Positions 1 to 10,613 of a stretch of DNA of 64,000 nucleotides are shown in pieces. Numbering within the stretch: the stretch's first letter is position 1; each line of letters begins with the position of its first letter. Both the position numbers and the translations under genes were made by a program. The notes beneath the pieces are model-generated. The model saw only the letters and a program-made list of their open reading frames with translations. It did no database searches and was not told where the DNA came from. Source of the stretch: Fidelibacterota bacterium (GTDB taxonomy: Bacteria > Fidelibacterota > Marinisomatia > Marinisomatales > TCS56); contig JBDRBK010000082.1 of the NCBI GenBank assembly GCA_043822705.1, positions 1 through 64,000 on the forward strand, read 5' to 3'.

Positions 1-1458
1 TATAAATCGGAGTACATTTCCGATTCCAGCGGCGACCGCCTGTTGTTCCGAATCGATGGCGATGGCAATTTTCTCCGCGACGCGGCCGGGGCGCTGATTC
101 CCGACCATTCGGGCAAGCCCTTCCGCCAGTGGCGCGAGCAGATCCGCACCAACCAGGATATTTGGGACGAGCTGGTGATAGTGGCCCGGATTCCCGGAAC
201 GACATCCGCTCCGCGCCTGCAGCCGATTTCGGCCCGGATCGTGATGCTCCAGAGCGGAATGCGGGCGCCGATGGGGATCAAGGTCAGGGGACCGGACCTC
301 GCGACAATCGAGGGCTTTGGTCTCGAGCTGGAAAAACTGCTCAAGGAAATTTCCGCCGTGGAAGCGGCCGCTGTTTTCGCCGACCGGATCGTCGGGAAAC
401 CCTATATCGAAATCGAAATCGACCGGCGGGCGATCGCCCGCTACGGTATCCCCCTGCGGATGGTGCAGGATGTGATCGAAGTGGCTATCGGCGGCAAGCA
501 AATCACTACTACGGTGGAGGGGCGGGAGCGCTACCCGGTGCGCGTGCGTTATCTGCGGGAACTGCGCGGCTCGATCGAATCACTGGAAGACATTCTGGTC
601 CCGGCCGGCGCCGGCGCCCAGATTCCGCTGGGACAGTTGGCCCGGATCAATTACGTCCGCGGTCCGCAGATGATCAAGAGCGAAGACACTTTTTTAACCG
701 GCTACGTGCTGTTCGATAAAAAGGAAGGCTGGGCGGAAGTGGATGTGGTGGAACAGGCCCAGCGTTACCTGCGGCAGAAAATCGTCGCCGGCGAACTGGT
801 GGTACCGGCCGGTGTCAGTTACGCTTTCGCCGGTTCGTATGAAAATCAGATTCGGGCCATGGAAAAGCTTAGTATCATTCTGCCGCTGGCCTTGTTCCTG
901 ATTTTCATGATTCTCTACCTGCAGTTCCGGCGGGCGTCCACTACGGCCATCGTTTTTTCCGGTATCGTTGTAGCCTGGGCCGGTGGTTTCACGATGCTGT
1001 GGCTGTACGGACAGGACTGGTTTCTGAATTTCAGCGTCGGCAGCGTCGATCTGCGGGCGTTATTCCAGATCCATCCGGTGAATCTGTCGGTGGCGGTCTG
1101 GGTCGGTTTCCTGGCCCTATTCGGCATTGCTTCTGATGATGGTGTGCTGATCAGTACCTATCTGGACCAGAGTTTTGCCAATCGAACCCCCGGATCAATC
1201 ACTGAAATTCGTGAAGCCGCGATTCTAGCCGGGTCACGACGTATTCGACCGGCAATGATGACTACCGCCACCACCATTCTGGCCTTGATTCCGGTGCTCA
1301 CAGCCACTGGGCGCGGTTCGGATGTAATGGTGCCGATGGCGATTCCATCGTTTGGCGGGATGTTTTTTGCGACGCTCACGACTTTTGTGGTACCGATCCT
1401 TTATACGGCTATCGCCGAGCGACGGTTATTGAATAAAAATGGATCAAGTAAAAATTAA
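1..1458 (+). CDS. cusA: CusA/CzcA family heavy-metal efflux RND transporter (5'-truncated by window edge)
   Basis: Frame open from base 1 (YKSEYISD...); motifs LQPISARIVMLQSGMRAPMGIKV, EGRERYPVRVRY, SVAVWVGFLALFGIASDDG, RIRPAMMT, GSDVMVPMAIPSFGGM. Confidence 0.92.
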   Translation, partial: YKSEYISDSSGDRLLFRIDGDGNFLRDAAGALIPDHSGKPFRQWREQIRTNQDIWDELVIVARIPGTTSAPRLQPISARIVMLQSGMRAPMGIKVRGPDLATIEGFGLELEKLLKEISAVEAAAVFADRIVGKPYIEIEIDRRAIARYGIPLRMVQDVIEVAIGGKQITTTVEGRERYPVRVRYLRELRGSIESLEDILVPAGAGAQIPLGQLARINYVRGPQMIKSEDTFLTGYVLFDKKEGWAEVDVVEQAQRYLRQKIVAGELVVPAGVSYAFAGSYENQIRAMEKLSIILPLALFLIFMILYLQFRRASTTAIVFSGIVVAWAGGFTMLWLYGQDWFLNFSVGSVDLRALFQIHPVNLSVAVWVGFLALFGIASDDGVLISTYLDQSFANRTPGSITEIREAAILAGSRRIRPAMMTTATTILALIPVLTATGRGSDVMVPMAIPSFGGMFFATLTTFVVPILYTAIAERRLLNKNGSSKN

Positions 1459-1481: not shown

Positions 1482-1853
1482 ATGAACAAGAAACTGATTG
1501 TAATCGGATTAATTGTGTTGTCTGGTATCTGGGCCTGCGGAAAGACCAAAACCGCCGATACGGCTGCCAAGATGGATCATTCCAAAATGGCCATGGCCGG
1601 TGCTGTGGTCGACGGAGAACAGTTAATTTATTACACCTGCCCCATGGATTCGCATAAGCATGTGCATTCCATGGAACCCGGTAAATGTCCCGAATGCAGT
1701 ATGACACTGGTGGCTGGTGTAGTAACTACCGAAGCAAAGATGGACTATTACGGCTGCCCGATGGAAGTCCATTCGCATATCCGCAGCGACCAGCCCGGCA
1801 CCTGCGACGAATGCGGTATGCTGTTGAAACCAATGCGGCTTGTAAAAGGTTAA
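1482..1853 (+). CDS. Lipoprotein with two heavy-metal-binding (YTCPM..H..PGxCPxCGMxL-type) domains
   Basis: SD aaggaag; lipobox-like IWAC; Met/His-rich linker; YYTCPMDSH...PGKCPECSMTLV and YYGCPMEVH...PGTCDECGMLLK. Confidence 0.85.
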   Translation: MNKKLIVIGLIVLSGIWACGKTKTADTAAKMDHSKMAMAGAVVDGEQLIYYTCPMDSHKHVHSMEPGKCPECSMTLVAGVVTTEAKMDYYGCPMEVHSHIRSDQPGTCDECGMLLKPMRLVKG

Positions 1854-1864
1854 ACAAGTGCAAA

Positions 1865-1892
1865 TGCCGGGTGTCTTCTAAGACGCCCGGCA
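1865..1892 (+). other. Inverted repeat / stem-loop after the metal-binding lipoprotein gene (no U-tract)
   Basis: TGCCGGGTGTCTT-CT-AAGACGCCCGGCA, 13-bp stem with one G-U pair. Confidence 0.5.
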
Positions 1893-1903
1893 ATATAAAT
1901 CTG

Positions 1904-2146
1904 ATGAAAGTAACCTATAAAATCGACGGTATGAAATTTCGTGGCGGTTTCCTCTGAAGCGGCTGACCGTCTGATATCGGCCGGGCTCTGGATGAGACCG
2001 AAGGTGTATTAAATCACAGTTTTGATCGCGATCGTTTATTGTTTAGCGTCGAAAATGATCCGCTGATCATTTCAAAAGCAGCGCTGATTCTTTGTATAGA
2101 AAATAGCGGTAGTTTTATTGTAAAAGACTGGAGTATCGTTCCCTGA
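1904..2146 (+). CDS. Putative heavy-metal-associated (HMA) domain selenoprotein with UxxU motif (two in-frame TGA)
   Basis: Manual translation MKVTYKIDGMKFRGGFL-U-SG-U-PSDIGRALDETEGVLNHSFDRDRLLFSVENDPLIISKAALILCIENSGSFIVKDWSIVP*; TGA at 1955-1957 and 1964-1966; HMA pattern (I.GM, AL...EGV, DP..IS...LI..IE..G); stop abuts the convergent gene ending at 2147. Confidence 0.7.
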
Positions 2147-7660: not shown

Positions 7661-7690
7661 ACCCGGTCGAAAGCGCTGATTCGACCGGGT
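7661..7690. terminator. Stem-loop between convergent genes
   Basis: ACCCGGTCGAA-8 nt-TTCGACCGGGT. Confidence 0.55.
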
Positions 7691-8415
7691 CAGCCCAGCA
7701 GATTTTTGAGCTTCGCCACGTAGCGGCGGCTCATGACAAACGGCTCTTCAATTCCTTTTAGGTACACCCGGTAGGAATAATTGAACCATTCCTCCAGGTG
7801 ATCGATATAGTCAAGATTGATGATGGTGGAGCGATGGATGCGGGTAAAATGATTTTCCGGTAGCCGAGTTTCCCATTCCTTCATCGATTTCTGCGTCAGA
7901 CCCTTTACACCGGAGATGGTCAATATTTCGGAGTAGTCACCGGCGGAATTGATATACAGTATATTTTTGATTCCGAGGAATTTGAATTGACTGTTGACCA
8001 TCAGAAATAGGTGGTCGTTGTAATTCAATTTACGGGTGCCGGCAACCTGAAATTCATCCTGGAGATCGATTCTTTCGATGGCCGTTTTCAGGCGCACCGG
8101 ATTGACCGGTTTGAGCAGATAATCCAGGGCATTAACATCGAACGCCCGAATCGCAAATTCATCGTAGGCCGTGACGAAAATGATTTTCAGTTCTGCGTCG
8201 ATTTTTTCCAGCAGATCGAAGCCTGATTCGCCGGGCATCTGAATGTCCAGGAAGATGACGTCGGGTCGCAGTTTCTGGATGGCTTCCTGAGCACTAACGA
8301 CACTATCGGCCTCGCCGACAATCTCTATCTCATTAATCTCTGACAACAGATCACGCAAATCTTTGCGCGCCAGTCGTTCATCATCAATAATCAGCGCTTT
8401 ATACGGCTTTTTCAT
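7690..8415 (-). CDS. LytTR family response regulator
   Basis: REC (IIDDE, FLDIQMP, FVTAYDE, DYLLKP) plus LytTR (FTRIHRSTIINL, MSRRY). Confidence 0.93.
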   Translation of the reverse strand: MKKPYKALIIDDERLARKDLRDLLSEINEIEIVGEADSVVSAQEAIQKLRPDVIFLDIQMPGESGFDLLEKIDAELKIIFVTAYDEFAIRAFDVNALDYLLKPVNPVRLKTAIERIDLQDEFQVAGTRKLNYNDHLFLMVNSQFKFLGIKNILYINSAGDYSEILTISGVKGLTQKSMKEWETRLPENHFTRIHRSTIINLDYIDHLEEWFNYSYRVYLKGIEEPFVMSRRYVAKLKNLLG

Positions 8416-9535
8416 GGGTGTCCTGAACTAACTTATGGATTTCCATTCTGACGTGGATATTATCGGGCTTTTTATTGATGGTAAAGGTATGGCTGCCGGG
8501 ATAGGCCTGTGACAAGCGCTGCCGGACATTGTGCAACCCCGAACCGATATCGATGTCATTTTCCGCTTTGCGCCGGGTGGAATCGATCCATTGTCCGGTG
8601 TTCATGACATCGATAGCGAGTACGCCTCTTGACACTTTGGCCGAAATCCGCACTTTCAGCGGCATCGGACTGGTGCGCATGCCGTGTTTCACGGCATTCT
8701 CGGCCAGCGGTTGGATTATAAAGCTGATAATCGGATAATCCTCCGCCAGCGGATCGATGTCAAACGAAATTTCAAGTTTATCCTCGTAGCGTCGCTTCTC
8801 GATGTAGAAGAAATGTTGTACCGCCTCGATTTCTTGGCGCAGCGATACCTCCGGGTAATTTTTACTGATCAGGGAATAACGCAAAAACTCGGATAACTCA
8901 GTCACCATTTTTTTTGCATCATTCTTGTCTTCAGTTATCAAAGCCCGTATTGAATTTAATGAATTAAAAAGAAAATGAGGATTCAATTGATAGCGCAATG
9001 TTTGCAGATGAGCTTTGTGGATCTGTTCTTTGGCCTCCTCGGTTTTTTCGCGCTGGTGGTTCCATTCCAGGAACAATTTGATTGAAAAATACAGGCTGCT
9101 CCAGCCGATCAGGAGGACGCTGTCCCAGAAGACCACATACTGATAGGCCCCTGGCACCAGTTGATTAATCCAGGTGAGACCGCGGCCCAGCAGGCTGTAG
9201 TAGGTCGTCCGGGAAACCCAGAACCAGACGTTGGCGGCAATTACCGAACTGGTCAAAGTGATCAGGATCAGGGTCGTGATGGACTGGGTATTGATATTGA
9301 TTTTTTGATAAATATAGCGCAGTAGAACAGTGAATACGAATCCCCAGACCGTGATGATAAACAGATTGATTATATCGTATTTAAATACATCGCGGAACCA
9401 GAAGAAATTAAAATAAACGATTATCCAGTAGAATACCCAGCCGAGGCTGTTAAGAATCCAGAATGAACCGGCTAATTTCTCCAGTTTCAGGAAATTCAGT
9501 TGGGTCAGGATATTTTTATGTTTCGGCGTTGTCAT
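8399..9535 (-). CDS. LytS/YehU-type membrane sensor histidine kinase
   Basis: N-terminal TM segments; QLNPHFLFNSLNSI; LSEFLRYSL; QPLAENAVKHG; GSGLHNVRQRL. Confidence 0.9.
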   Translation of the reverse strand: MTTPKHKNILTQLNFLKLEKLAGSFWILNSLGWVFYWIIVYFNFFWFRDVFKYDIINLFIITVWGFVFTVLLRYIYQKININTQSITTLILITLTSSVIAANVWFWVSRTTYYSLLGRGLTWINQLVPGAYQYVVFWDSVLLIGWSSLYFSIKLFLEWNHQREKTEEAKEQIHKAHLQTLRYQLNPHFLFNSLNSIRALITEDKNDAKKMVTELSEFLRYSLISKNYPEVSLRQEIEAVQHFFYIEKRRYEDKLEISFDIDPLAEDYPIISFIIQPLAENAVKHGMRTSPMPLKVRISAKVSRGVLAIDVMNTGQWIDSTRRKAENDIDIGSGLHNVRQRLSQAYPGSHTFTINKKPDNIHVRMEIHKLVQDTHEKAV

Positions 9536-9551
9536 TATTCATGGTCGTTGA

Positions 9552-10613
9552 TCAGCGGCTGATTTCCAGTTTGAAATGGACACTGTTCTGTTTCTGGATC
9601 ACGTCGAATGTATAGCGATTCGGGAAGGCATTTTCCAGGCGCTGGCGGATGTTGCTGAGACCGGTGCCTGTACTGCCGCTGGGTTGGGCAAGATTTTCAG
9701 CCGGATCGACCCAGCGCCCGCTGTTGCGCACTTCGAGGATCAGGGTATCGTTCAATACCCTTGCAATAATCTGAATCGTTAAAGGCAACGGGCTGGTCCG
9801 CATGCCGTATTTGATGGCGTTTTCAACCAGCGGATGGAGTAAAAACCGGATTACCAGAAAATCGTTGGCCAGCGGATCGATATCAAAAATAATATTTAAC
9901 TTGTCCTCGAAACGTTTCTTTTCGATGGCGAAATAATGCTGCAACGCTTCCATTTCATTTCGCAGCGGCACATCAGAATATTGTTTGCTGAGCAACGAGT
10001 AGCGCAAAAACTCCGAGAGTTCGGATATCATGCTCCGGGCATTGTTGGCATCCTCCTCAATCAGTGCCCGGATGGAATTGAGTGAATTGAAAAGAAAATG
10101 GGGGTTGAGCTGATACTGCAACATCTGCAACTGGGCCTTGTGGGCCAGGATGTCGGCCTGCCGGGTACGTTCACGCGCTTCGTTCCATTCCATCCAGAAC
10201 TTAATGGTGAAATACAATGTGTGCCAGGCGAAGATCAAAACACCCCAGAAAAATACTCCCTGCAGATAATAATCGATAGTCGTCGGCACTACCTGCTCAC
10301 CGGGCTGAATCATTATTTTATTCACCAGCAGTCGCAATACGTACCAGACATTGATAATTATCAGGGTCGCGCCAGTGGCGATTGCAAATACTTTCGCCAG
10401 TGAAAGTGCCTGAAAATTAATCCTGCTATAGATATATCTGATGATAACCGTGAGCAGAAAACCAATTGACACGACCAGTGTATTCCAGATCATATAACGG
10501 ACACCATAGTATCCCATCGATTTGGCATTGGTGATGATATATAACCAATAAATACCCCAGCCGGATAATTGCAGAATCCAGAATAACCGATTTTTATTGT
10601 ATAAAACGCTCAC
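9552..10613 (-). CDS. LytS/YehU-type membrane sensor histidine kinase (paralog)
   Basis: GTG start; TM segments; QLNPHFLFNSLNSI; PLVENAIKYG; STGTGLSNIRQRL. Confidence 0.9.
   Translation of the reverse strand: MSVLYNKNRLFWILQLSGWGIYWLYIITNAKSMGYYGVRYMIWNTLVVSIGFLLTVIIRYIYSRINFQALSLAKVFAIATGATLIIINVWYVLRLLVNKIMIQPGEQVVPTTIDYYLQGVFFWGVLIFAWHTLYFTIKFWMEWNEARERTRQADILAHKAQLQMLQYQLNPHFLFNSLNSIRALIEEDANNARSMISELSEFLRYSLLSKQYSDVPLRNEMEALQHYFAIEKKRFEDKLNIIFDIDPLANDFLVIRFLLHPLVENAIKYGMRTSPLPLTIQIIARVLNDTLILEVRNSGRWVDPAENLAQPSGSTGTGLSNIRQRLENAFPNRYTFDVIQKQNSVHFKLEISR

Follow-up and report, generated by a model that had tools for sequence, protein, structure and literature searches.

A predicted double-selenocysteine protein of HMA fold beside a CusCBA-like operon in a Fidelibacterota bacterium

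The locus

The window (the whole stretch of 64,000 nucleotides that was analysed) begins within a gene for an RND efflux pump, which is followed by a gene for a lipoprotein-like protein and then by a short frame containing two internal TGA codons (Table 1). The sequence-only reading had described this frame as a clean one of 80 residues, and the sequence is as described: it starts with the ATG at 1904, runs through the TGA codons at 1955 and 1964, and closes with a terminal TGA at 2144–2146, giving the motif U18-S-G-U21. As had also been noted, its end abuts the convergent neighbour, a nitronate-monooxygenase-like gene ending at 2147.

Table 1. Features of the UxxU locus, with window coordinates
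Feature	Coordinates	Strand	Basis
CusA/CzcA-family RND pump, 3′ part	1–1458	+	Profile matches
Lipoprotein-like protein with two HMBD (CPM) domains	1482–1853	+	PF19335, 71 bits
12-bp intergenic hairpin, without U-tract	1865–1892		z = −5.8; conserved in closest relatives
UxxU selenoprotein gene (predicted), 80 aa, HMA (ferredoxin-like) fold, without signal peptide	1904–2146	+	ORF reading, AF2, Foldseek
KFRGGFL, 6-residue insert specific to the family, ahead of the motif; short β-hairpin in the model	1934–1954	+	AF2, alignment to canonical domains
UGA1, predicted Sec18	1955–1957	+	TGA conserved in homologues; aligned to first Cys of CxxC
Proximal hairpin, overlapping UGA2 or immediately past it, two registers by group; putative role	1960–1983	+	Pairing, one covarying pair per group
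UGA2, predicted Sec21	1964–1966	+	TGA conserved in homologues, Cys in some
bSECIS-like hairpin, loop UGGAU at 1989–1993, one G.A mismatch in the window copy	1982–2000	+	Covariation; like host SelD, HesB-like and Trx-like Sec genes

Contig C59 carries the TolC-type gene, the CusB-like gene and the 5′ portion of the gene for the pump. A relative's pump, 81% identical to that of the window, passes the CusA/CzcA cut-off, and the upstream operon appears from its genes to be CusCBA-like. No Shine-Dalgarno sequence was found upstream of 1904, whereas the neighbouring genes have one, and a promoter and terminator scan gave nothing above shuffles; the intergenic hairpin was not called as a terminator. 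This hairpin is conserved ahead of the gene in L122, L113, L123 and L178. The spacers at these loci vary in length by multiples of three, and the relatives nonetheless have in-frame stops. A frameshift fusion of the gene to the upstream HMBD lipoprotein was considered and rejected: although the window keeps the shifted frame open, stops interrupt it in the three closest relatives. Small shares of four sequencing runs gave no coverage of the two TGA codons, and the RNA contig examined overlaps the window at 2138–2309 only, so that it too misses them.

The host genome is 93% complete, and its one further HMA domain belongs to an SO_0444-like permease. Searches of it for merT, merR, a true merA and a P1B-ATPase found none, so the usual partners of CopZ or MerP are missing. 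Further along the window, on the minus strand, positions 7690–10613 appear to carry a tandem pair of sensor-kinase-like genes with a LytTR-like regulator.

Selenocysteine decoding in the host

The machinery for selenocysteine (Sec) is present in the host genome: selA, selB, two selD genes and tRNA-Sec were all found, each above its cut-off, and one of the two selD genes has an in-frame TGA of its own. TGA is the commonest stop, terminating 733 of 1719 long ORFs as well as two window genes, and the only tRNA found with a UCA anticodon is tRNA-Sec. It follows that the genetic code is not globally changed, as the sequence-only reading had supposed from the neighbouring genes, and a global reading of TGA as Trp is ruled out.

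Two further host genes, L169:292–579 (HesB-like) and L170:312–1061 (a lipoprotein Trx-like protein with UxxC), each have an in-frame TGA and a TGGAT hairpin, both identities being profile matches below cut-off. A second SelD, of Cys type, lies within a 740-aa frame (L011; G000:C16:5088–6014, minus strand); from its motif it is presumably fused behind a NifS-like domain. Fusion of a NifS-like protein to SelD is mentioned as rare in the accessible part of PMC2398784.

Conservation and spread of the family

A profile built on the 12 first homologues was run against 401 genomes of the phylum, and 53 of them matched at E 1e-8 or better. Among the 34 strong matches (E below 1e-14), codon 18 is TGA in all 34; at codon 21, 29 have TGA, 4 have Cys and 1 has Trp (TGG), so that 33 of 34 have TGA or Cys there, and the downstream frame is conserved. 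By hand comparison, selA is present in 32/34 of the strong carriers and in 301/401 of the phylum genomes overall. The remaining carriers are G396, which has selB, and G213 (93% complete), which has an intact UxxU gene with its SECIS and no match to selA or selB. The family profile gave no match in 72 genomes of three families in which selA occurs in only 1/72. In other groups, which account for 20 loci, selA was found in 5/5 of the carriers tested.

Two wider sets were collected. For GTDB genomes a DNA pattern demanding the SECIS was used; it gave 58 matches, of which 54 were true by HMM score and 4 were dropped as chance. Two of the 54 loci are identical and many overlap the phylum set; carriers include Blastocatellia, Nannocystales, Kofleriaceae, Chloroflexi, Poribacteria, Akkermansiaceae and Planctomycetota. 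For metagenomes the pattern omitted the SECIS and allowed Cys at both sites. It gave at least 120 loci, 115 of them true, with 76 distinct homologues among the matches listed; all 76 have the first TGA, and they divide into UxxU (70), UxxC (6) and CxxC (0). Across phyla, conservation extends to both TGA codons and to the frame beyond them, so the TGA codons are not there by chance.

Protein-database searches, which were word-based and insensitive (one of them covering the best 150 of 2004 matches), turned up neither a named member nor a full-length form with CxxC. The full-length database proteins show W at both U sites and come from short contigs. These proteins, together with the single homologue that has TGG at the second site, are what would speak for TGA being read as Trp under an alternative code. 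The W residues are best explained by gene callers applying code 4, and one database cluster contains read-through and truncated calls together. The stop usage and tRNA set of the host argue against a Trp reading, while alternation of the second site with Cys and conservation across phyla argue both against it and against two nonsense mutations, which had already been thought the less parsimonious explanation. We consider either of these extremely improbable. The sequences instead define a cross-phylum family, separate from the catalogued NF041115 protein, whose members appear to have been truncated, or misread as WxGW, by gene callers.

Some members are decaying (L116, L132, L098, L077, L078 and L092), with frameshifts, UxxW, a lost motif or a broken signal peptide. 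In addition, HMA-like domains with one in-frame TGA each were seen in genomes of family f27 (G067:C13:10755–10946, G083:C568:1029–1220 and G078:C7:2085–2285), and are possibly another form of Sec-containing HMA domain.

RNA elements

In the accessible part of PMC13188914, the bSECIS model is given as a stem of 4–16 bp with G in the first two loop positions, 16–37 nt from the UGA. The hairpin at 1982–2000 agrees with this description in loop G and in spacing, its loop starting 31 nt past UGA1 and 22 nt past UGA2, with one mismatch in the window copy that is flanked by extra pairs. A YGGAK loop is common to the SelD, HesB-like and Trx-like Sec genes of the host, and a strict TGGAT hairpin follows just 49 of 117,739 TGA triplets. 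The hairpin was found in 67 of the 76 distinct metagenome homologues among the matches listed, a set chosen without reference to it. In these 76, pair 33–41 is CG in 48, UA in 16, GC in 8, UG in 1 and broken in 3, and is therefore kept in 73/76, although the shuffle controls for this covariation ignore kinship. The pair joins the wobble base of Ala28 to the middle base of codon 31; between them, Leu29 is CTG in 70/76 of the same homologues. Single-sequence folding around the UGA codons of the window was no better than shuffles (z about 0).

The proximal hairpin occurs in two registers by group, with 87–88% of its cells paired. Its support in each group is a single covarying wobble pair, placed 2nd among 758 variable column pairs in one group and 3rd among 1174 in the other. 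RNAalifold did not recover the hairpin. Since both bases of the pair are at wobble positions, the covariation may reflect GC bias or common ancestry. If real, the hairpin could even out the tether to a single SECIS, by being folded at UGA1 and melted at UGA2.

Taken with the Sec machinery and the conservation of the frame, the SECIS hairpin indicates that Sec is very probably inserted at both UGA codons of the gene.

Fold and phylogeny

The AF2 prediction, made from a 12-row alignment, is a ferredoxin-like fold with a pLDDT of 89.9 for the 80-aa protein. The best Foldseek matches are metal-binding (HMA) domains of P1B-ATPases, CopZ and MerP, with TM 0.7–0.77. A profile search of PDB sequences concurs, and both U residues fall on the CxxC, where helix 1 begins. 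The match to Pfam HMA (PF00403) is 20.2 bits, below the cut-off of 24.8, and a contiguous GMxCxxC is absent; on its own, the Pfam match is weak. The unusual stretch of seven residues between GM and the motif, pointed out in the sequence-only reading, is KFRGGFL, which leads from GM to U18 and amounts to a 6-residue insert relative to GMxC. The pLDDT is 73 over residues 11–20, and the hairpin modelled for the insert is less certain.

In a FastTree phylogeny on 68 columns with the insert columns removed, 48 family members form a single group, apart from 24 canonical HMA domains. Pro follows the second U in 48/48 members, and many of the canonical domains used here are likewise CxxCP. Within the family, the signal-less clade that includes the window copy nests among signal-bearing forms (support 0.92). 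The proposal that the frame encodes a two-Sec protein of HMA fold that annotation does not see is thus strongly supported, by the Sec machinery, the conservation, the SECIS, the fold and the purifying selection described below.

Comparison with known systems

A UxxU HMA-like selenoprotein family is already catalogued as NF041115, ‘putative mercuric reductase’, in the accessible parts of PMC13188914 and PMC9312934. Like the window protein it is a small HMA-like domain with two Sec in UxxU; it is the best NCBIfam match of the window protein and is matched by 12/12 of the first homologues. Unlike true members, the window protein scores 17.2 bits against a cut-off of 95, and none of 24 other members reaches it (maximum 56.8), whereas with this model ordinary CxxC HMA domains, at up to 84 bits, outscore the insert-bearing family. 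The comparison was made with the model, and the alignment ranges imply a 6-residue insert relative to it. A search for true NF041115 members found 0/201 and 0/301 genomes above cut-off. It is concluded that UxxU HMA selenoproteins were already known, and that the insert-bearing family is, as model scores and alignment support well, a distinct variant.

The family shares with MerP (TIGR02052) and CopZ (NF033794, NF033795; PF00403 HMA) its fold, the position of the motif and the CxxCP-type Pro. It differs in having Sec for both Cys, an insert in the GMxC loop and fusions to Trx/TlpA, and all scores to these models are below cut-off. Secreted relatives resemble MerP in adjoining merT-like genes; the window copy has neither signal peptide nor mer operon, in contrast to many relatives. 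As for CopZ, the window copy is signal-less, and the P1B-ATPase is absent from what was searched of the host genome. The NF045683 MerT/CopZ fusion selenoprotein and the UxxC cation-transporting ATPases also have Sec in or near HMA-type heavy-metal sites, but are membrane fusions, to which members match weakly (about 30 bits against 375). In the accessible part of the GOS supplement (PMC2398784), the selenoprotein called ‘MerP’ has a different sequence. No mention of the insert-bearing UxxU family was found in the accessible parts of PMC1976440, PMC12013277 and PMC13326102, and the literature searched, outside Haft and Tolstoy 2025, Deng 2026 and the BSepDB entries, gave no description of an insert-bearing or Trx-fused family.

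Gene contexts and the state of the window copy

By eye, a signal or lipoprotein peptide is present at 40/54 GTDB loci, absent at 7 and unclear at 7. Neighbours were counted within 4 kb at these 54 loci, without background control. The metal neighbours are MerT-like (14) and MerR-like (7), both below cut-off, zf_CopZ (8), HMBD (5), CusA (3) and CopA (1), while redox neighbours include a TrxB-like oxidoreductase (9), a SelL-related redoxin (8) and glutaredoxin (7). Any metal gene occurs at 20/54 loci, any redox gene or fusion at 37/54, both at 13/54 and neither at 10/54, several of the last on short contigs. A Trx/TlpA domain (WCxPC) lies in the same frame at 16/54 loci, C-terminal in 15 (in two domain types) and N-terminal in 1. 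L140 has a MerA above cut-off, and L191 is adjoined by a MerB-like gene. An ArsS/ArsM-like/glycosyltransferase cluster and a SelL-related redoxin precede the members L131 and L133.

The excess of redox over metal neighbours, uncontrolled for background, the in-frame Trx/TlpA domains, and the departure of the insert from the GMxCxxC loop would all fit a genuine double-Sec protein that is a redox module, in which a diselenide/diselenol exchanges electrons with thioredoxin, TlpA, glutaredoxin or a TrxB-like protein and metal is secondary. We regard this as rather unlikely. Operons of the merR/zf_CopZ/merT kind contain most of the Trx-fused forms, and the reductase may there do no more than keep a metal site reduced; no redox partner lies close to the window copy; and the Foldseek neighbours are all metal-binding domains.

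The window clade is signal-less and lies downstream of RND/HMBD genes, behind the conserved U-less hairpin. Its nesting within signal-bearing forms could mean that, within a real family, the window copy is what remains of a lipoprotein gene, less its signal peptide, weakly expressed or decaying and little tied to the RND operon. The missing Shine-Dalgarno sequence, the upstream hairpin, the SECIS mismatch and the position of the RNA contig point the same way, as does decay in relatives: L116 has a frameshifted leader, L132 an internal frameshift, L098 has UxxW, and the close relative L123 has no ATG at the start position. Against this, the dN/dS of the window copy is 0.19, 0.22 and 0.32 relative to its three closest relatives (77 codons; dS 1.2–1.8, near saturation), which supports purifying selection on the window copy. 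Its frame and SECIS are intact, extra pairs flank the mismatch, and other signal-less members with their own starts occur elsewhere in the family. A remnant is therefore improbable.

Proposed function

We favour the reading that the product is a soft-metal-binding selenoprotein of HMA fold. SelB and tRNA-Sec would decode both UGA codons by way of one in-frame SECIS hairpin, and the two selenols would occupy the CxxC site of MerP/CopZ at the start of helix 1. The UxxU protein probably binds metal there, and the selenol pair may hold a soft ion two-coordinately, with Cu(I), Ag(I) and Hg(II) as candidates, making the protein a high-affinity scavenger or a hand-off carrier. Selenols bind Hg and Cu(I) more avidly than thiols. 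Binding of methylmercury to Sec is described in the accessible part of PMC8763373. Secreted relatives would fill the MerP slot of mer-like operons, with fused Trx domains keeping the site reduced, while the signal-less window copy would be a cytoplasmic CopZ-like metal buffer beside an RND metal-efflux operon.

The more specific suggestion that the protein serves the CusA/CPM-lipoprotein system fared less well. Its position is as proposed; but RND efflux and the HMBD lipoprotein act in the periplasm while the window protein has no signal peptide, the contexts of relatives are mostly mer-like or redox, and the hairpin and lack of a Shine-Dalgarno sequence separate the gene from the operon. The Cus system specifically is thus a doubtful partner.

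A broader and more speculative combination, which we think unlikely to hold in full, is a Sec-obligate HMA lineage (so called in that there is no CxxC member among the matches listed), in which a diselenide/diselenol site takes over from MerP/CopZ in capturing Hg, Cu or Ag while thioredoxins, fused or adjacent, keep it reduced, and in which one SECIS serves UGA codons 9 nt apart, the proximal hairpin shortening the tether of UGA1 and melting for UGA2.

On the favoured reading, the family would bring selenium into mer-like and RND efflux gene clusters, at the step where metal is bound. Its UxxU, UxxC and Trx-fused forms would constitute a natural series, on an 80-residue scale, on what selenium gives a metal site, and the gene would be a compact natural case of two UGA codons, three codons apart, decoded with one SECIS.
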